Assembly (NCBI GenBank): GCA_937125455.1
Contig: CAKZLK010000012.1
Coordinates: forward strand, 50,241 to 114,240
DNA from: an uncultured Aequorivita sp.
Lineage (GTDB): Bacteria > Bacteroidota > Bacteroidia > Flavobacteriales > Flavobacteriaceae
Reading direction: 5' to 3'
Length of the DNA stretch: 64,000 bases
Shown here: in pieces, positions 8,254-64,000 of the stretch
Position numbering within the stretch: the stretch's first letter is position 1
Layout of the letters: the number at the start of each line of letters is the position of its first letter
Program-made: the position numbers and the translations under genes
Notes under the pieces: model-generated
Databases searched by the model: none
Told to the model about the DNA's origin: nothing
Seen by the model: the letters and a program-made list of their open reading frames with translations, nothing else

Positions 8254-8901
8254 TTAAATAATATTGTGATTACGCGCTTTTTGAACTGCTTCAATCTTAC
8301 TGTGAACTTGTAATTTTTTGTAGATATTTTCAATGTGTTTTCTAACAGTACTCGGTGAAAGGAAAAGATGCTCTGCAATCACCGTATAGCTTAGTCCTTT
8401 GCTAAGTTGTTCCAAAACTTCAACTTCGCGAGTTGAAAGTGATATTTCTTCTTGGTCTCTTGGATTTTGAATATCGATTGGATTGCGGAGCAGTTTCAAA
8501 GTTTTCATTGCTATAGAAGGGTTCATCGCCGCACCACCATTTAAGGTTTCACAGATCCCATCGTATAAATCTTTCGGATTAATTTCTTTCAGCAAATAAC
8601 CGTCTGCCCCAGCTTTTATAGCGTTAAAAATATGCTCGTCGTTATCAAAAGCCGTGAGCATAATTATTTTAATGTGCGGATACTTCTGCTTTATTACTTG
8701 GGTAGTTTCAATACCATTGAGTACAGGCATTTCAATATCCATCAAAATTAAATCGAGATTGTGATTTTCTTGGAGTTTTATGAGCAGTTCGCTGCCATTT
8801 AAAGAAGTGTGCTTCACGGCGACATCATCAAAAAAAGAAAGTTTTTCCTTTATGGCGTGGATAAGGAAAGAATTGTCATCAACTATTGCAATCTTCAGCA
8901 T
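8254..8901 (-). CDS. LuxR/NarL-family response regulator
   Basis: 215 aa with a receiver domain (DDNSF..LILMDIEMP) and a C-terminal LuxR HTH (LSTREVEVLEQLSKGLSYTVIAEHLFLSPSTVRKHIENIYKKL). Confidence 0.9.
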   Translation of the reverse strand: MLKIAIVDDNSFLIHAIKEKLSFFDDVAVKHTSLNGSELLIKLQENHNLDLILMDIEMPVLNGIETTQVIKQKYPHIKIIMLTAFDNDEHIFNAIKAGADGYLLKEINPKDLYDGICETLNGGAAMNPSIAMKTLKLLRNPIDIQNPRDQEEISLSTREVEVLEQLSKGLSYTVIAEHLFLSPSTVRKHIENIYKKLQVHSKIEAVQKARNHNII

Positions 8902-8960
8902 CTTATTTTGGTTAGTAATTTAAAGATACTTAAAAATACAGTTTTAAAAACACAAGAAAA

Positions 8961-8977
8961 TAGGGCAATTGCCTTAT
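8961..8977 (-). promoter_or_regulatory. 17-bp near-palindromic motif copy 1 (TAGGGCAATTGCCTTAT)
   Basis: Lies 60-76 nt upstream of the regulator ATG and overlaps the kinase stop codon. One of four related copies in this window. Confidence 0.5.
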
Positions 8978-10746
8978 TAGGCGGTTACTAATAAAATAAT
9001 GGTTCCCTTTTTGGACGACTTTATTTTAATTGTTCCCCCAATCTCTCGAGCGCGCTTTTTCATATTGTTAAGGCCATTGCCCATTTCTACTGTATTAGCA
9101 TCGAAACCTTTACCGTTATCGGTAATATTAATATGATATTGATTTTCTTCTTTTGAAATATTAACTTCAATTTCGTCTGCAGAAGCATATTTCAATGCGT
9201 TGTTTACTGCCTCTTGAATGATTCTATAAATGTTCATTCCTTCCACGGACGAAAATACATGGGTTTCATCAACATCTTTGTCAATTTGAAAAGAAAACTC
9301 GGTTGTTTCCGAAGCATTCTTGGCGTGTTCTATAAAGTTTGCAATGCGAGCCTGAAGGTCTTCAAAAGTGATGTTTTCTTTGTTCATCGCCCAAATGGTA
9401 TCGCGAAGCTCATAAATGGTTTGCGATGTGAAATTGCTGATGCTGGTTAGTTTATTGCCCAATTTTTCACTGATATCCGTAAAACCATATTTTAAATTAT
9501 CAATACTGGAAATGATAAATGTAAGCTGTGCGCCAATATTGTCATGCAAATCACGGGAAATTCGAAGGCGTTGCTCCTGCAATTTGTTTTGAGTTTCTAT
9601 TTTAGCCAACGCATTTTTTAGCTCACCTTCTTTTTTAAGTTGGCGATTTTTTAGTTTTTGTTGGTTATAAAGTAAATAACCCAATAATCCCAAAACAAAT
9701 GCAAGCCCTAAACTGCCATAAATAAAAGTGTTTTTTCGGCGTACTTCCAAGTCTTTTTCGGCAAGTTGAGCACGTTGTTTTAAAATTTCATTTTGCTTCT
9801 TTTCAGTTTCAAACTCAATGTTAAGAGCTGCAATGCTTTCCTGCACTTTTATGCTGTGAACGCTATCTTTTACAGAAGAATACTGTTCAAAATAAAACAA
9901 AGCCGAATCTGCATTGTTCAACTTTTTGTAAATATCTGAAAGCATTTTGTAATTGTATTGCGTAAGATTTTGGTATTTCTTTTTCAGCGAAATGAACAAA
10001 GATTTATGCATCAAAGGAATTGCTTGGTTCCATTTTTCTTCTGCCATAAAAACCTCTCCCAACTGGGTATAGTTTTCTGCAATTCCCAGCGAATCTGCCC
10101 ACACCAATCTTTGCTTAAGTGATTTGTTGAAATATTCCCTGGACTTTGAATAATTTTCCTGCAAACCATAAACCCCAGCCATGTTGCTCCAACTATATGG
10201 AATGCCTATGGTATCGTTGAATTTTTGTTTTATTTCTAGCCCGCGATTATAGTAAAAAAGTGCGCTATCCAATTCGTTATTTATCTCTTTTAAAACGCCA
10301 TAATTATTATATATATCCTTTAATTCATTTTCAAAATTATTGGCCTCGGCAACGGCTTTTCCTTTTTGCATATAATAAAGCGCCTTTTCTAAATCGCGAT
10401 ATTTCATGCTATACCCCATTTCAGCGTAGTAATCTGCTACCCTATCTAACTTGTTGAGTTTTTCATAAATTTTTATGCCTTCAATTGTACTTTTAGCGCT
10501 TTCCTCATACTTTCCTTGATAACCATAAACCAAACTGAGTTGCGAGTAAGCGTCGGCCATACCAAGCTCGTAGGAAATATTTTTGGCATCTTTTAAATTT
10601 TTCTGAAATAGAGAAACTATGGAATCCTGCGGAATATTAAGTCCTTGAACGTAGAGTTTGTTTATAGAATCAATGGTTTGTTTGTCTTGCGAAAAGGAAG
10701 CCGTGATACTGAAAAAAATGAAAAGCTGTAGAAGAAATTGCCTCAT
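8977..10746 (-). CDS. sensor histidine kinase, TPR-repeat periplasmic region plus HisKA_3/HATPase_c
   Basis: 589 aa with a signal peptide, TPR-like repeats and a TM segment (IYGSLGLAFVLGLLGYLLY). Also has the H-box RISRDLHDNIGAQL and ATPase motifs DNGKGF and GNGLNNMKKRA. Confidence 0.85.
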   Translation of the reverse strand: MRQFLLQLFIFFSITASFSQDKQTIDSINKLYVQGLNIPQDSIVSLFQKNLKDAKNISYELGMADAYSQLSLVYGYQGKYEESAKSTIEGIKIYEKLNKLDRVADYYAEMGYSMKYRDLEKALYYMQKGKAVAEANNFENELKDIYNNYGVLKEINNELDSALFYYNRGLEIKQKFNDTIGIPYSWSNMAGVYGLQENYSKSREYFNKSLKQRLVWADSLGIAENYTQLGEVFMAEEKWNQAIPLMHKSLFISLKKKYQNLTQYNYKMLSDIYKKLNNADSALFYFEQYSSVKDSVHSIKVQESIAALNIEFETEKKQNEILKQRAQLAEKDLEVRRKNTFIYGSLGLAFVLGLLGYLLYNQQKLKNRQLKKEGELKNALAKIETQNKLQEQRLRISRDLHDNIGAQLTFIISSIDNLKYGFTDISEKLGNKLTSISNFTSQTIYELRDTIWAMNKENITFEDLQARIANFIEHAKNASETTEFSFQIDKDVDETHVFSSVEGMNIYRIIQEAVNNALKYASADEIEVNISKEENQYHINITDNGKGFDANTVEMGNGLNNMKKRAREIGGTIKIKSSKKGTIILLVTA

Positions 10747-10749
10747 AAC

Positions 10750-10992
10750 TTATAGTTGGATTTCCTTTTGGACTATCAATGCTTCACTTAAATTAAATTT
10801 TAAAAAATCGTAATTTTTAAGGCTTTTATTTCTAAAATTTATTTGGCAACTATTACTGGAAATAGCATCTTCCAAGGCCAGAAGATTTTGATTGTGAGTG
10901 TGTATGATGGACCTTCTTTCCTTTAAAAACCAGACAATAAGTCCAATAATGGAGAATAGTAGCAACAAAGAAATGGAAAGTGATAAATACAT
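10750..10992 (-). CDS. small single-pass membrane protein, first gene of the kinase operon
   Basis: 80 aa with an ATG start and an N-terminal TM segment (LSISLLLLFSIIGLIVWFL). Its stop lies 3 nt before the kinase ATG. Confidence 0.45.
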   Translation of the reverse strand: MYLSLSISLLLLFSIIGLIVWFLKERRSIIHTHNQNLLALEDAISSNSCQINFRNKSLKNYDFLKFNLSEALIVQKEIQL

Positions 10993-11045
10993 TGCTGGAA
11001 TTGGTTTTAAAACCTAAAGATAACTGATTTTCATTTTTAATCACA

Positions 11046-11062
11046 TAGGGCAATTGCCTTAT
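11046..11062 (-). promoter_or_regulatory. 17-bp motif copy 2 (TAGGGCAATTGCCTTAT)
   Basis: Identical to copy 1. Lies 54-70 nt upstream of the ATG at 10992. Confidence 0.5.
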
Positions 11063-11111
11063 TTAATTTTGGGATATAAATGTTTCTTCTTCTAGAATTT
11101 CTTTATTTAAG

Positions 11112-11152
11112 AATGATAAAAAAAATAAACCCCATAGTTGAACATGGGGTTT
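11112..11152 (-). terminator. rho-independent terminator after the beta-propeller gene
   Basis: The minus strand reads AAACCCCAT-GTTCAACT-ATGGGGTTT followed by ATTTTTTTT. Confidence 0.7.
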
Positions 11153-11210
11153 CAGAACTTTGGGCGCTCCTCAATTCGCCCTCCGTTTGAAAAATAATCT
11201 GGTTAGTAGA

Positions 11211-13079
11211 TTACTTTTTAAGATCGTATGCAAAAATTGAGTTGTTATCTGCTTTGTAATAAAGCAACCCTCCAATTTCATCTACTATATATTCAGGTTG
11301 TTTGTCTTTAAGCACAATTTCCTTTCCTTTTTCACCGGTATCTTTGCTTAATTTCACGAGACCTACACCATCTTCAAGTTTTGTAAGTATAAACTGGTCG
11401 TCTTTAGTTGCTGCCGTTGCTTTGAAACGTTTAAGCATTTCAGCAATTGACGCTCCTGTTGCGGCAGCCATTCCTCCGGCTAGGTCTGCATCTATCTCAG
11501 ACTGTCTGTCATATCCAGCCAATTTGTTTTGCATAGAAGAGTTTGCGGCGGCCATTGCGGTTGTTGCCGACGCTACTGCTGCTACTCCAGCTATAATAGC
11601 ACCCATAGCGCTTTTACCTGGCGCACGGTAATATTCTTGCCATTGTTTGCCGCCATTCCAATCCATAAGCATCATATTTTGATCGCTTGTCAATAAAATT
11701 CCACCATCTCTAATTTCCACGTGTGACGGAGCTTCCTTGCCATCAAATTTTGATTCGGCAAGTGTACTTACCTCTCCTGAAGTTGCATCAACGGCATATA
11801 ACGTTTCGTCTGCACTTATTAGGTAACGGTTATTCTTTTTGTCCAAAGTTGAGCTTACAGCGCCAGCTCTTTTATATTTTAAAGGTTTTTCCCAAACCTG
11901 ATCGCCAGTTTTAAGGTTTACAATATTAGCATCTTCGGAAGTGATATATATTAAACCTTGTGGCGTTTCAGCCATTGTTAAAATATTCTCTCCTGTTTTT
12001 AATGGCTTTTTGAAAAGTGTCTGTCCGTCAAACGAAATCTTGTTGATTCCACCTTGGTAAATCCCGAAGAGAATACCGTCCTCCATTACATAAAAATGCT
12101 GTACGTAGCCTTTTGTTTTAGGGGCTTTTTCCCAAAGGTCCTCACCGTTTGATGCACTCAAGAATGCGATATTCGATTCATTCTTTGCAGCAAAAACACT
12201 GTCACTCCCTCCATCACTTTGATTACTCACTACCGCAATTCCATTGGGCAAAATTTGAAAATTAACAACCTGACCTTTCACTTTATGGTCATCTTTCCAA
12301 AGCTCGGCACCATTTACACCAACTTTGTGAATACGGGTATTTTTTCCTTGATTTACGCTTTCAAAAGCATAAATTTCTTTTTCTGAAGCATCTGCCACCA
12401 TCCAGCTGATATTCTTCATATCGTTTTCCCATAGGGTCTCACCAGTTTGTGCTTTTTTGGCCAATAATCCTTTCGTTGTTGGCACAATTAAATAATCTTT
12501 TAATAAAAGTACAGCACCACTGGGCTGCATACCGGCACCCATTGTTACTTTTCCGGGATCACCCAGATTGAATCTGTAATCTTCTTTACCAGTGTTAAGA
12601 TCGTAAACAGCAACCGCTGTGGCATATTTTTCTTCTGATCGGCGTTGTCCAGTTACAACCAATTTGTTTTGTGGCATTTTCACATCGCAGCTATAGGCTA
12701 TTTTCCAGCCATTGCTTTCGGTGTTGAATAAAACCTGACCTGACATATAATCTATCACAGATTTTTTGGCCGTTAGGTTTGCAAACCCTCCCTGTGCAAC
12801 AATTACATAAGGCGCATTGGGAATAAAAGTAAGCTCCTCTGGCTTTACCCTTCCATATTCAGTAAAATTAAACAACAGTTGATTGCTACCTGGTTTTATC
12901 CCCACAAGACCATCGTTGGTAGCAACCACCATTGTTCCTCCTTGCGTTAATGACATTTCATTTATTTTTGCCCCAGTATCATATCGAAAATCTGGTTGTT
13001 CTGCTTTTTGGGCAGTAATGGTCAAAGTCGTAAAAAGCACAAGGCTGACCATAGTATAAAATTTAATTGAAGTTTTCAT
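11211..13079 (-). CDS. secreted beta-propeller-like (PQQ/WD-like repeat) protein with Ala-rich hydrophobic C-terminal segment
   Basis: The ATG at 13077-13079 gives a signal peptide (MKTSIKFYTMVSLVLFTTLTITAQ). Repeated motifs of the G..LWE/W.K type. Near the C terminus is the segment AMGAIIAGVAAVASATTAMAAA. Confidence 0.6.
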   Translation of the reverse strand: MKTSIKFYTMVSLVLFTTLTITAQKAEQPDFRYDTGAKINEMSLTQGGTMVVATNDGLVGIKPGSNQLLFNFTEYGRVKPEELTFIPNAPYVIVAQGGFANLTAKKSVIDYMSGQVLFNTESNGWKIAYSCDVKMPQNKLVVTGQRRSEEKYATAVAVYDLNTGKEDYRFNLGDPGKVTMGAGMQPSGAVLLLKDYLIVPTTKGLLAKKAQTGETLWENDMKNISWMVADASEKEIYAFESVNQGKNTRIHKVGVNGAELWKDDHKVKGQVVNFQILPNGIAVVSNQSDGGSDSVFAAKNESNIAFLSASNGEDLWEKAPKTKGYVQHFYVMEDGILFGIYQGGINKISFDGQTLFKKPLKTGENILTMAETPQGLIYITSEDANIVNLKTGDQVWEKPLKYKRAGAVSSTLDKKNNRYLISADETLYAVDATSGEVSTLAESKFDGKEAPSHVEIRDGGILLTSDQNMMLMDWNGGKQWQEYYRAPGKSAMGAIIAGVAAVASATTAMAAANSSMQNKLAGYDRQSEIDADLAGGMAAATGASIAEMLKRFKATAATKDDQFILTKLEDGVGLVKLSKDTGEKGKEIVLKDKQPEYIVDEIGGLLYYKADNNSIFAYDLKK

Positions 13080-13136
13080 AATCGTGGTTTTATATGTTGA
13101 TAGTTCAAAGATGCTTCGGAATAAAGGTGAAATCAA

Positions 13137-13153
13137 TAAGGCAGTTGACGTAT
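13137..13153 (-). promoter_or_regulatory. 17-bp motif copy 3 (TAAGGCAGTTGACGTAT)
   Basis: Lies 58-74 nt upstream of the ATG at 13079. Confidence 0.45.
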
Positions 13154-13280
13154 TTTGTTACGTAGAATGGTGGTTAGTTGTTCATTTAAAATTTCACCCT
13201 TAAAAAAACCGGAAGAAAAACTTTCGTTTATCCCCCGGCCCACGTAAAAACCTCAACATAGAGATTCTCTTTAGCGCTTT

Positions 13281-13799
13281 TTATTGAAAATTTACATTAA
13301 AAGAACCTTCGGTAATTTCTTTAAAGCTTCCATCTGCATTTTTCCCTTTGAAATTAAAAGTACCCTTAATATTCGTAGTCGAAACTTCGGAAACATTTAT
13401 TTCACCCGCTACAGTTTCGTCATATGGAGCTACCCAAGTTTGTGCATCCATAGGATTGGCTACATCTACTTCTGTATAACTTGCATTGCCAAATACATTG
13501 GCACCTCCGCCAATATTATAGGAGCCAACTCCGTCAAAACCACCAATGATTGAAATTGTCATATTTCGTCCATTCATTGTGTTTGCAGTGATTGTTACAG
13601 TACTTGTACCATTTGCATCAATGCGCGTAGCGCTAGTGAGCGCCGCTTCTGAATTATAATCTGATCCAGCTACCTTAGCACTCACCGTACCGGAAGCGGC
13701 TCCACCGGCAGAACCGCCATCATCATCTTTCTTACAAGAAGTTAAACTTATGGCAACAACGGCCATCAATACTAAAATTGTTTTGTTGAATGTTTTCAT
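13281..13799 (-). CDS. lipoprotein of unknown function
   Basis: 172 aa with a lipobox-like signal (MAVVAISLTSC) followed by KKDDDGGS. Confidence 0.6.
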   Translation of the reverse strand: MKTFNKTILVLMAVVAISLTSCKKDDDGGSAGGAASGTVSAKVAGSDYNSEAALTSATRIDANGTSTVTITANTMNGRNMTISIIGGFDGVGSYNIGGGANVFGNASYTEVDVANPMDAQTWVAPYDETVAGEINVSEVSTTNIKGTFNFKGKNADGSFKEITEGSFNVNFQ

Positions 13800-13882
13800 T
13801 TTGTTTGGTTTTAATTCTCCGCCCTAGCGGATACGTGATTATTAGTTGAAGCAAAATTGCCCCAAAAGCAAAGGTTTCACAA

Positions 13883-13899
13883 TAGGGCAATTGACGTAT
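13883..13899 (-). promoter_or_regulatory. 17-bp motif copy 4 (TAGGGCAATTGACGTAT)
   Basis: Lies 84-100 nt upstream of the ATG at 13799. Confidence 0.45.
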
Positions 13900-58634: not shown

Positions 58635-59510
58635 TTATCCGCCAAAACCGCCACGACGACCATTGCCACCACCTCTAAAATTCTCACGAAGTTCATCTGT
58701 TTTTTCCTTTACGATTTTTACGTATTCTTCACGACTAACTTCCTTTCCTTTTTTAGGGGGTTCAATTTTTTCGGAATCTTTTGGATTCATTACTATTTTA
58801 GAACATAAAAGTGTGGTTCTGTAAACATTTAGTTCTAAAATTAGACCCGGCAAACCAGCATATTCTCCTGGACCGTTGCTCACAGGAATCTGTGGTGTAA
58901 ACCAAGCTGTAACCTCAATTTCTTCAGGAATTTCAATCATATCCATTGGGTCTTGGGGTTGAGTGGTATCTGTTTTCTTCTCTGCGCTTTCTTTTTCGTC
59001 TTTCTTTTTGGGTCGTGCCATACTGTAATCGTTTTGATCAACTTTCTTTATGGCAGTTGCCTTAAAAGCAATGTATTGCCCAATTGGTTTAGACTCCTTC
59101 GTTATTTGCCAATCCAAGGTTTGGATGGAATCTGTAACTAAAAATTGTTTTCCGAAGAATTCATTCTCCTCAATAATTTGTCCTGTTTTCAAGTTTTTGT
59201 ATTGTGCTCCTGGCGTGTAGCTACTCATCATCATCTTAAAACCGGGGTTTATAGGAGCGGCATCCAGCTTTTCTTCTTCTTTATAGATAGATTCATCTTT
59301 ATTGAATGTTAGAATGTAGGTTTTCTCCAAAGCATTTTTCATCATTTGGGCGACTGTTTTTTTCATCTCCTCAGACATTTCACGGTTGCCACCTCCAAAC
59401 GCCTCCATATCAACAGTGGTTTTGGATTCATAATAGGCTTGTCCGCTAATATTTTGGGCGTTTATTCCGAAAGTAAAAAGTAGCAGAGAAATTAATATAT
59501 ATTTTTTCAT
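58635..59510 (-). CDS. GLPGLI family protein
   Basis: 291 aa with a signal peptide, the name-giving motif (YAGLPGLILE) and an Arg/Gly-rich tail. Confidence 0.8.
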   Translation of the reverse strand: MKKYILISLLLFTFGINAQNISGQAYYESKTTVDMEAFGGGNREMSEEMKKTVAQMMKNALEKTYILTFNKDESIYKEEEKLDAAPINPGFKMMMSSYTPGAQYKNLKTGQIIEENEFFGKQFLVTDSIQTLDWQITKESKPIGQYIAFKATAIKKVDQNDYSMARPKKKDEKESAEKKTDTTQPQDPMDMIEIPEEIEVTAWFTPQIPVSNGPGEYAGLPGLILELNVYRTTLLCSKIVMNPKDSEKIEPPKKGKEVSREEYVKIVKEKTDELRENFRGGGNGRRGGFGG

Positions 59511-61196: not shown

Positions 61197-61721
61197 ATGA
61201 AAATTATTAAACTATTTCTTTTTACCACATTTTTAGCATTAACTATTTCTTGTTCAAAGGATGATGACAATCCAACAACTGCAAACAATGGCAATATCGT
61301 CGGGGTTTGGAAAGGAACCACAGTAGATTATACTGGAAGCACAACTACTTCTGGTCAAGGGCAAACTATATCTGCTGACTATGTTGGGGAGGCCTATGAC
61401 GTTGATTATACCCTAACTTTCACCGAAAACCCTAAAAAAGTTATTTCAGACGGGAGTTATAGCATTGAACTAACAACCACTATTAATGGTCAATCCACTA
61501 CTCAAAACGTTGAGGGACTTGAGTTTCTTTCAAGCGGTGATTGGAATATAAATGGCGATACATTGTCAATTACTGTTGATAATGAAACGGACGATGCAAC
61601 CATCATGGAATTGACTGATACAACTTTGGTATTGAAAGCAGTGGAAACTCAGACAATGAATCAAGGAGGCTTTACAGTAACTTCAACAACTCAGGTTATC
61701 TTAAGTTTTACAAAGCAATAA
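61197..61721 (+). CDS. lipocalin-like lipoprotein of unknown function
   Basis: 174 aa with a lipobox (ALTISC) followed by SKDDDN, and a beta-rich Thr/Gly composition. Confidence 0.55.
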   Translation: MKIIKLFLFTTFLALTISCSKDDDNPTTANNGNIVGVWKGTTVDYTGSTTTSGQGQTISADYVGEAYDVDYTLTFTENPKKVISDGSYSIELTTTINGQSTTQNVEGLEFLSSGDWNINGDTLSITVDNETDDATIMELTDTTLVLKAVETQTMNQGGFTVTSTTQVILSFTKQ

Positions 61722-61800: not shown

Positions 61801-64000
61801 CTACTCTTTATCCTTCACTTTAATCTTCATTCCATCCACATCTTTCAATTGTGCTCTCACTTCTTCTTCAGTTCCAGTGAACGTTTTGGTTTCAGTAGTT
61901 TCAACGCCGTCAACTGTTTTTGTAATAGTTACGTTTGCAGTTACTTGATCGTTGCTATCGTTTTTCAACATTTCAACAGTAGTTTCGGTTTTGTCCTTCA
62001 GGTTTTCGCCTTCTTCAATGGTGCTTCCGGTTTCAATATATTGAATTTGCTTTTCGGTCAAAATAGTTTTGTTTCCATCGGCATCAATAAAGTATACTTC
62101 ATCTGAAGTAGTTTCATTAGCCATTACATCACTACTAGTATGGCCTCCAAGGATTGGGGCAATTACAAGTCCGATCAAACAGGTAAGTTTAATCAAGATG
62201 TTCATAGAAGGTCCTGAAGTATCTTTAAAAGGATCACCAACAGTATCACCGGTTACCGCAGCTTTATGCGCATCAGAACCTTTGTAGGTCATTTCACCGT
62301 TAATCAATACTCCCGCTTCAAAAGATTTTTTAGCGTTATCCCAAGCACCTCCAGCGTTGTTTTGGAAAATAGCCCAAAGTACACCACTCACGGTAACTCC
62401 AGCCATATAACCACCCAACATTTCGGCAATTGCCATATTGTTCATTCCAAAAATCATCGGAACGAAAGCAATAACCAATGGAAAACCTATGGTTAAAACA
62501 CCTGGTAATAACATTTCCTTCAAAGACGCTTTGGTTGAAATAGCCACACATTTGTCGTATTGTGGTTTACCGGTACCTTCCATAATACCAGGAATGTCAC
62601 GGAACTGTCTACGCACTTCGTTTACCATCTGCATTGCAGCTTTACCAACCGCATTCATAGCCAAGGCAGAGAATACAACTGGAATCATACCACCCACAAA
62701 AAGCATCGCTAAAACAGGCGCTTTAAAGATGTTAATTCCATCAATTCCAGTAAAGGTTACATAAGCAGCAAAAAGTGCCAATGATGTTAATGCAGCAGAA
62801 GCAATGGCAAAACCTTTACCAGTTGCAGCAGTAGTATTCCCAACAGAGTCTAAAATATCGGTACGCTCACGAACAATTGGTTCTTGCTCGCTCATTTCGG
62901 CAATACCACCAGCGTTATCACTAATAGGTCCAAAAGCATCAATTGCAAGTTGCATCGCTGTTGTAGCCATCATTGCAGACGCTGCAAGGGCAACCCCATA
63001 AAAGCCAGCAAAAGCATACGATGCCCAAATAGCACCTGCAAAAAGTAATACTGAAGGGAATGTAGAAATCATTCCTGTTGCCAAACCTGCAATAATATTG
63101 GTTCCAGCACCAGTTGATGATTGTTGTACTATTTTAAGAATTGGTTTTTTACCCAAACCAGTGTAATATTCAGTTACCGATGAAATTGTAGCACCTACAA
63201 CCAAACCAACCAATGTGGCATAAAATACTCTCATTGAAGAAATCTCTTGCAGTCCTTCGCCGAAGAAACTCATATTCATGGTTTCTGGAAGCATCCATTT
63301 TACAAGAACAAAACACGAAATAGCCACTAAAACTATGGACACCCAGTTCCCGATGTTTAAAGCACCCATTACTTGGGCTTCTTTCGCATCGTTATTTTTT
63401 ATTTTAACCAGCATTGTACCAATAACAGAAATAATGATTCCTGCACCTGCAATTGCCATTGGCAATAAAATGGGGCCAATACCGCCAAAAGCATCTGTAA
63501 TGGCACCGCCCATATCTTTTATAACGTAGTTCCCTAAAACCATCGCTGCCAACACTGTGGCTACATAACTACCAAATAAATCGGCACCCATACCTGCAAC
63601 ATCACCAACGTTATCACCCACGTTATCAGCAATAGTAGCTGGGTTACGCGGATCGTCTTCTGGAATACCAGCTTCAACTTTCCCTACCAAATCTGCACCA
63701 ACATCAGCAGCTTTTGTGTAGATACCACCACCAACACGTGCAAAAAGTGCGATAGATTCAGCACCTAAACTAAAACCAGCCAATGTTTCAAGCACGATAG
63801 TCATTAATTCCTGTGGGGTTCTAGTAATGCCATCAACAGTTGTTGGCTCCCAAACACCGTTCATAAAAACGTGGAAGAAGATGATAAAGAATAAAGTTAG
63901 ACCCAAAACAGCAAGACCTGCAACACCTAAGCCCATTACCGTACCACCACCAAAAGATATTTTTAGGGCATCTGGCAAGCTTGTTCGCGCAGCTTGTGTG
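61801..64000 (-). CDS. hppA: membrane-integral pyrophosphatase (H+/Na+-translocating), N terminus beyond window edge
   Basis: Conserved motifs are [22 protein letters not shown] and DTVGDPFKD. The reading frame stays open to the window end, and the track's M at 63978 is a TTG inside the gene. Confidence 0.92.

Follow-up and report, generated by a model that had tools for sequence, protein, structure and literature searches.

Four neighbouring transcription units in an uncultured Aequorivita sp. (Flavobacteriaceae) are preceded by the same short palindrome, which raises the question of which protein binds it and to what effect. The locus lies in a 64,000-nt stretch of contig CAKZLK010000012.1 (assembly GCA_937125455.1, positions 50,241 to 114,240 of the forward strand). 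We call this whole stretch the window, and coordinates given without a locus number are window positions. The four units encode, all on the minus strand, a response regulator, a TPR sensor histidine kinase in an operon headed by an 80-aa single-pass membrane protein (sm80), an exported PQQ_2/BamB-like propeller protein and a DUF6252 lipoprotein. An earlier note on this DNA had taken the palindrome for the operator of the adjacent regulator. Comparative genomics supports this assignment through conserved promoters, a register control, the invariance of the recognition helix and the covariation of helix and operator core. From these sequence comparisons, we consider it very likely that the palindrome is the operator of the adjacent NarL/FixJ-family regulator, whichever the sign of regulation.

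Four copies of an 18-bp near-palindrome in the window

In gene orientation, that is on the minus strand, the motif reads ATAMGKCAAYTGCCYTAT and is an 18-bp near-palindrome with the layout of a 7-2-7 inverted repeat. The operator consensus, ATA(C/A)G(G/T)CAATTGCC(N)TAT, comprises two inverted 7-bp half-sites and a 2-bp spacer. An alignment of 99 oriented, intergenic sites, anchored on the motif, gives the consensus ATACGGCAA in the first half and TTGCCGTAT in the second, with a dyad symmetry of a size suited to a dimer. Motif positions 1-3, 5, 7-8, 11-12, 14 and 16-18 are nearly invariant among these sites, which is partly an effect of how the sites were retrieved, and the only asymmetric positions are 6/13 and 4/15. 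The idea that the promoter-proximal half-site is the better conserved one fails overall (0.93 versus 0.95 mismatches).

A scoring matrix made solely from the sites of other genomes (maximum 32.1 bits) picks exactly four sites in the window, all on the minus strand and scoring 26.7-30.5 bits. The copy before the response-regulator gene (8960-8977, ATAAGGCAATTGCCCTAT, 29.8 bits) begins on the final base of the kinase stop codon. The copy before the sm80-kinase operon (11045-11062) has the same sequence, ATAAGGCAATTGCCCTAT, and scores 29.8 bits for the motif and 36.9 bits in the extended model. The corresponding scores are 26.7 and 42.5 bits for the copy before the propeller gene (13136-13153, ATACGTCAACTGCCTTAT), and 30.5 and 47.5 bits for the copy before the lipoprotein gene (13882-13899, ATACGTCAATTGCCCTAT). 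The next best matches reach at most 11.7 bits and lie in coding sequence, and the four sites are unique in the 64 kb. The four 17-mers quoted in the earlier note are all present at the positions it gave. The 17-bp unit is thus real, but the conserved element is 18 bp long, with an extra A/T pair at 8960, 11045, 13136 and 13882. The core GGCAATTGCC had been described as a perfect palindrome, which is true of two of the four sites and not of the other two, and the distances from the 17-mers to the ATG codons, put at 54-100 nt, are 59, 53, 57 and 83 nt.

The number of matches in the window exceeds the expectation from dinucleotide-preserving shuffles, with 9 strand-hits against 0.37 expected for a pattern search allowing up to 3 mismatches. 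For the core GGCARTTGMC, 9 hits were counted where 0.66 are expected. When the outer frame and the promoter box are sought with looser criteria, the search returns the same four sites and one extra position, 33006, which has the outer frame only and no core. The weak matches at 59049 and 62422 are attributed to chance: both are in coding sequence, neither exceeds 11.7 bits, and the -7 box at the offset described below is missing. The 3-mismatch motif at 59049-59065 falls within an open reading frame (58635-59510), and a chance GGCAATTGCC at 62425-62434 falls within a large membrane-protein reading frame (61801-63978); both are without a promoter signature.

The motif adjoins Bacteroidetes promoter elements in a fixed register

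In 86 of the 99 aligned sites, a -7 box (TAnnTTTG) follows after 22 nt, with its first base at motif coordinate 41; in 11 more it is shifted by 1 nt at most. The box composition is A42 in 86%, T45-T47 in 91-98% and, at position 48, G in 63% and A in 32% of the sites. Directly behind the motif, T19 (80%) and G20 (62%) join the motif's last T (T18) to give a -33 TTG. The approximately 20 nt between the motif and the -7 box are unconserved, as are the flanks, and only the 18 bp of the motif are kept. The sigma-A box TAnnTTTG is reported to occupy -12 to -5 in Flavobacterium psychrophilum (PMC9723704). By this spacing, transcription would start at coordinate 53, and the motif would extend from -52 to -35 with its centre at -43.5. 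The commonest base at coordinate 53, the predicted start site, is A. This geometry is that of a class II site, which lies near -41.5 to -44.5 in a fixed register and adjoins or overlaps the -35/-33 element, with the centre of about -43.5 being assumed from the box position. The promoters of unrelated genes have a common register, which indicates constraint rather than common descent, and a rigid register beside the -33 element is as expected for an activator that contacts RNA polymerase.

In the window, the -7 boxes (all on the minus strand) are found at 11015-11022 for the sm80-kinase operon (TATCTTTA), at 13106-13113 for the propeller gene (CATCTTTG) and at 13852-13859 for the lipoprotein gene (CAATTTTG), and a putative one for the regulator gene is found at 8931-8938 (TATTTTTA), 21 nt from the operator. 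The start sites predicted from these boxes are approximately 8925, 11010, 13101 and 13847. In addition, the regulator promoter has a second conserved box some 9 nt further downstream than the canonical -7 box, at 8921-8928 (minus strand, TATCTTTA). This second box, (G)TATCTTTA(A), is common to the regulator promoters of loci L001, L031, L034, L044, L055, L066, L079, L083 and L105, and it may represent a second, basal promoter.

A sigma-70 promoter scan of the window gave 18 promoters against 18.7 expected and is uninformative; Bacteroidetes promoters differ. A promoter of an alternative sigma factor was considered as well, and it is ruled out by the palindromic element and the normal -33/-7 elements that follow it.

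The same promoters carry the motif in orthologous loci

The earlier note had named conservation of the motif position in orthologous loci as a check, and the same promoters are indeed marked both in genomes retrieved without the motif and in genomes retrieved with it. The motif-independent set consists of three loci fetched via propeller orthologues, from Aequorivita sp. H23M31, Constantimarinum furrinae and Rasiella rasia. All three have the gene order alaS, GSCFA, DUF6252, propeller, variable genes, TPR kinase(s) and regulator, and all three have sites before the lipoprotein, propeller and regulator genes. Further sites precede the kinase operon in one Aequorivita locus, sm80 in Rasiella and some of the variable operons. 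The number of kinases per locus differs among genomes. In Aequorivita sp. H23M31 (L001, 8983-13120), there are two tandem TPR-HisKA_3 kinases, the second with its own operator and sm80, and an RHS-repeat protein.

An exact scan with the pattern ATAMGNCAATTGCCBTAT, using one genome per species for approximately 185,000 species, yielded at least 120 blocks of 8 kb. At least about 50 of them are homologous loci with the motif before the same genes, and their taxa include Aequorivita, Flavobacterium, Leeuwenhoekiella, Dokdonia, Mesonia, Gilvibacter, Polaribacter, Ulvibacter and Weeksellaceae. In Emticicia agri and in a metagenome-assembled genome (MAG) of Ignavibacteriaceae, the kinase and the regulator (49-50% identical) are the sole relatives of the locus detected beside the motif. 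At least about 40 blocks come from unrelated phyla and resemble the chance background expected for the pattern. The promoter register serves as a control here: among the exact hits listed, TTT stands at the fixed offset in 61 of 66 hits from homologous blocks, 15 of 27 from other Bacteroidota blocks and 1 of 42 from non-Bacteroidota blocks.

The blocks of Aequorivita antarctica (L105, 3813-4284) and A. soesokkakensis (L118, 2300-2692) have no detected propeller homologue, and the motif remains between the lipoprotein gene and sm80. This copy may be a relic or a re-used promoter.

The recognition helix of the regulator covaries with the operator core

Among DNA-binding proteins, the regulator alone is consistently linked to the motif, including where other genes of the locus were not detected. 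Both in the window and in dozens of further loci, a gene for a receiver domain plus a GerE helix-turn-helix (HTH) domain is adjacent to the motif. The recognition helix of the window regulator is STVRKHIENIYKKLQVH, and this helix is nearly invariant among the regulators that keep the motif, from 95% down to 49% overall identity.

We also assembled a motif-blind sample of 80 metagenome loci, fetched by the regulator protein alone (93-53% identical). Where the helix of the regulator begins LSPSTVRKH, a CA..TG core occurs in 40 of 43 sites and in 23 of 25 loci. In a sister group of regulators, with LSxGT[IV]RKH at the start of the helix, 20 of 24 sites and 14 of 15 loci show the form ATACG-N8-CGTAT, which lacks the CA..TG core. 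These variant sites share the -33/-7 register and often stand in an alaS-GSCFA-lipoprotein or propeller context; examples are L161 (1682), L194 (172), L176 (2034), L166 (954), L170 (2228) and L146 (4646 and 5463). Comparing helix class with operator core gives 23 of 25 against 1 of 15 loci with the CA..TG core (Fisher p ~7e-8, uncorrected for phylogeny).

A candidate activation mechanism and its alternatives

The reading that we favour is that the palindrome is the regulator's operator and that a dimer of the phosphorylated regulator probably activates the four window units in a class II manner. Activation merits lower confidence than the identity of the operator, and we infer binding, its dependence on phosphorylation, the sign of regulation and the start sites from the DNA sequence. 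In the proposed sequence of events, the periplasmic-TPR kinase would phosphorylate the regulator, by inference at Asp55, and the regulator dimer would then occupy the palindrome from about -52 to -35, centred at about -43.5. The operator would thereby abut the -33 TTG of a Bacteroidetes sigma-A promoter, and the bound dimer would recruit or activate RNA polymerase as class II activators do. The units switched on would be the regulator gene, the sm80-kinase operon, the gene of the exported tandem beta-propeller and that of the DUF6252 lipoprotein. Activation of the sm80-kinase operon would amount to positive autoregulation, in which sm80 might act on the kinase as a feedback partner. Our best guess for the physiological role is a cell-envelope or surface response.

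Several observations weigh against this reading. The helix classes were defined after inspection of the data, and the related sequences in them are not independent. The two classes differ in the last helix and at the N-terminal end of the recognition helix, at residues other than those that we take to be base-contacting in NarL. Several loci have no site within the sequence covered. Of 18 close orthologues in the motif-blind sample, only about 10 have a strong site immediately before the regulator gene, so that this gene is not separately autoregulated in every genome; in many of the remaining orthologues, the regulator gene follows closely behind the kinase gene and a site lies further upstream. 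In addition, the site overlaps the -33 element, which makes occlusion, and hence repression, geometrically possible.

Repression from the same operator is the alternative that we take most seriously, although we think it unlikely. By occupying -52 to -35, the regulator would keep sigma region 4 off the -33 TTG, and its release from the DNA would induce the regulon. It fits that the motif's last base belongs to the -33 TTG in most sites and that NarL-family proteins are able to repress. The single-base register, however, is held in 86 of 99 sites over unrelated promoters, and a fixed register is typical of polymerase-contacting activators, whereas repressor sites tolerate variable positions. 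The sites before the regulator and kinase genes also fit the positive autoregulation that is common in two-component systems, and NarL itself activates from -44.5 (PMC9314961). It is more improbable still that another transcription factor, encoded elsewhere, binds the motif and that the nearness to the two-component system reflects shared regulation and not cause. The relatives of the regulator without a detectable nearby site, and the remote sites of other genomes, would suit such a factor; against it stand the position of the regulator as the sole DNA-binding protein with a consistent link to the motif, even in Emticicia and Ignavibacteriaceae, where the other genes of the locus were not detected, the covariation of helix class with operator core and the 7-2-7 geometry, which suits GerE-type dimers.

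A non-regulatory repeat or a chance cluster is hardly credible and is already contradicted by the data. The element is palindromic, its core CAATTG is the sequence of a type II restriction site, and a simple scan flags 11045-11062 as terminator-like on the plus strand, so that a repetitive extragenic palindrome (REP), a miniature inverted-repeat transposable element (MITE), a cluster of restriction or methylation sites or a hairpin terminator might come to mind. Yet 18 bp are conserved and the flanks are not, the copies are confined to promoter positions in a fixed register where shuffles predict 0.37 hits, and the matches outside Bacteroidota have no promoter signature. The flagged hairpin lies on the non-coding side, upstream of the predicted start sites. 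A dispersed palindrome of the REP or MITE kind in particular does not agree with four copies in 64 kb, all at promoters and with unconserved flanks.

Comparison with known systems

A single NarL site, which is a 7-2-7 inverted repeat, is enough for activation when centred at -44.5 (PMC9314961). The system described here resembles E. coli NarL/NarP in the family of its regulator (receiver plus GerE HTH), in its HisKA_3 kinase partner and in its inverted 7-2-7 operator, TAcGgCA-AT-TGCCnTA as compared with TACYYMT-NN-AKRRGTA for NarL. The half-sites differ after the shared TAC. NarL is the best NCBIfam match of the regulator, but the score of 129.2 bits is far below the equivalog cut-off of 250, and the regulator does not qualify as a NarL equivalog. 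The sensor is a periplasmic TPR domain and not a nitrate-binding domain, the promoter is of the Bacteroidetes -33/-7 type, and the regulon is unrelated to nitrate respiration.

The solved structures closest to the regulator are VraR, LiaR and NarL, and the first two belong to LiaFSR/VraTSR, the cell-envelope stress systems of Firmicutes. Further parallels are the HisKA_3 kinase, the small membrane protein whose gene accompanies that of the kinase, the autoregulation of the operon, the palindromic operator and the small size of a regulon made up of envelope proteins. In contrast, the Lia and Vra kinases are intramembrane and without a large outside domain, whereas the kinase here has a periplasmic TPR domain of about 320 aa, and the target genes differ. 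Homology of sm80 to LiaF or VraT did not emerge, as sm80 has no family match in Pfam or NCBIfam.

LuxR on the lux box (Vibrio fischeri) and TraR on the tra box are GerE-type dimers that bind an 18-20-bp palindrome near -42.5, overlapping -35, for class II-type activation. The motif resembles the lux box in this geometry. Acyl-homoserine lactone controls LuxR and TraR by way of their autoinducer-binding domain, whereas the regulator here has a phospho-receiver domain and, according to Pfam, no Autoind_bind domain, and thus it is not a LuxR of the quorum-sensing type.

Among Bacteroidota kinases with a periplasmic TPR sensor between two membrane segments, only that of FimS/FimR in Porphyromonas gingivalis has been studied by experiment, and this system exerts positive control of surface-structure genes in response to a signal that is unknown (PMC11053733). 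The window kinase shares the periplasmic TPR sensor and gives a weak NCBIfam match over the TPR part, at 55 bits against a cut-off of 600, and it is therefore not a FimS orthologue. The targets of FimS/FimR, unlike those found here, are fimbrial genes.

Full-text literature searches returned no account of the motif, of DUF6252 or of a flavobacterial NarL-type regulon, and nothing relevant on TPR/HisKA_3 proteins in Bacteroidetes. The mechanism proposed is conventional, that of a NarL-type activator on a 7-2-7 site, and the system is widespread and uncharacterised. To our knowledge, two-component regulation in Flavobacteriia, a dominant marine and freshwater group, is almost unexplored. The present analysis defines the operator precisely and adds a promoter model that predicts the start sites. 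The system is conserved over many genera, and its regulon is now directly testable. The site would be among the first activator sites that can be placed relative to the unusual Bacteroidetes -33/-7 promoter, and the natural series of operator and recognition-helix variants should be useful for the study of specificity.

The predicted regulon extends further in other genera

The earlier note had also pictured a compact autoregulated regulon. The autoregulatory part is supported, because the window has a site before each unit of the two-component system, the regulator gene and the sm80-kinase operon. Compactness holds for the 64 kb only, since other genera have further and sometimes remote members. 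We clustered the first genes downstream of the sites, and the largest families are the DUF6252 lipoprotein (22), the regulator (18), the propeller (14), sm80 (11) and a MORN-repeat protein (9), followed by smaller families. Members found in other genera include, by Pfam, DUF6498, FGE-sulfatase and YbjN-like proteins and a protein with a type IX secretion system sorting tail. CHAT-TPR proteins of about 955 aa follow a MORN-like 242-aa protein in Allomuricauda, Flagellimonas and Leeuwenhoekiella, and in Arenibacter a homologous 243-aa gene heads this arrangement, with the second gene extending past the block end. Another operon of the regulon encodes a papain-like plus DUF4384 protein and then a caspase plus WD40 protein, and the Emticicia regulon has Kelch propellers with DUF4907. 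Beside the site in Emticicia agri, there is also a divergent gene for a collagen-like lipoprotein.

Some members are remote from the two-component genes in genomes that have the system, as on contigs 2 and 6 of MAG JAWKMP01. Remote operons with an operator at the usual register were observed in L073 (4230-7931), L092 (6663 onwards), L026 (6021 onwards), L045, L058, L070 (1979-6878) and L037. The MORN-like 242-aa protein is followed by the CHAT-TPR protease in L073, L045 and L058, and in L026 and L092 the second gene extends past the block end. Others of these remote operons encode the papain-like-DUF4384 and caspase-WD40 proteins. The products of the remote operons that were inspected all have signal peptides.

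Nearly all regulon products inspected start with a signal peptide or a lipobox, and together with the families represented this marks the regulon as one of exported repeat proteins and cysteine proteases. It would tie uncharacterised exported proteins, including the CHAT, caspase-like and papain-like proteases of other genera, to a single signal pathway. A bolder proposal, which we hold only tentatively and think rather doubtful as a whole, is that the TPR kinase, sm80 and the regulator form an undescribed envelope-signalling pathway that is widely conserved in Flavobacteriia and has relatives in Cytophagales and Ignavibacteria. Its regulon would be exported throughout and would combine repeat scaffolds (tandem beta-propeller, Kelch, WD40, MORN and TPR) with cysteine proteases (CHAT, caspase-like and papain-like). 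The pathway would then serve a periplasmic or surface quality-control or defence response without a counterpart among the known envelope stress systems, with sm80 as a regulon-encoded feedback partner of the kinase and with an operator core that co-evolves with the recognition helix.

Genes of the locus in the window

The gene assignments of the earlier note agree with our Pfam and open reading frame checks. The five genes described here are all on the minus strand. The response regulator (8254-8901) belongs to the NarL/FixJ family, with Response_reg (2e-24) and GerE (4.5e-18) domains in Pfam, and its phospho-acceptor is presumably Asp55. The sensor histidine kinase (8977-10746) contains TPR, HisKA_3 and HATPase_c domains, and is laid out as an N-terminal signal or first transmembrane segment, the TPR domain outside the cytoplasm, a transmembrane helix at 340-360, HisKA_3 and HATPase_c. 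The gene for sm80 (10750-10992) has its stop codon 3 nt from the kinase ATG. Elsewhere, sm80 is preceded by its own operator-bearing promoter, and 11 homologues are directly downstream of a site.

The propeller gene (11211-13079) encodes a protein with a signal peptide that is conserved at 70-95% identity across genera and whose homologues point to an Aequorivita species as the source, and the ATG at 13079 fits the length of its homologues (622 aa). An intrinsic terminator at 11127-11152 (minus strand), with a 10-bp stem and a T run, ends the propeller transcription unit. The protein is predicted to be a tandem beta-propeller with an Ala-rich hydrophobic insert. The structure model is of moderate quality (predicted local distance difference test, pLDDT, 70), and a fold search returned generic tandem WD and BamB-like propellers only, with no functional lead. 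The Ala/Gly-rich hydrophobic insert, at residues ~487-557, precedes the last blade, has its hydropathy peak at 491-512 and is modelled with a pLDDT below 50.

The DUF6252 lipoprotein gene (13281-13799) encodes the lipobox LTSC. A second small lipoprotein of 174 aa is encoded at 61197-61721 on the plus strand without an operator, and its lipobox ISC is followed by KDDD as in the DUF6252 protein. We considered it as a paralogue of the DUF6252 lipoprotein, and the similarity is not meaningful, at 25% over 120 aligned positions and with its best part near the signal peptide. A GSCFA-family gene and alaS lie upstream of the five minus-strand genes.

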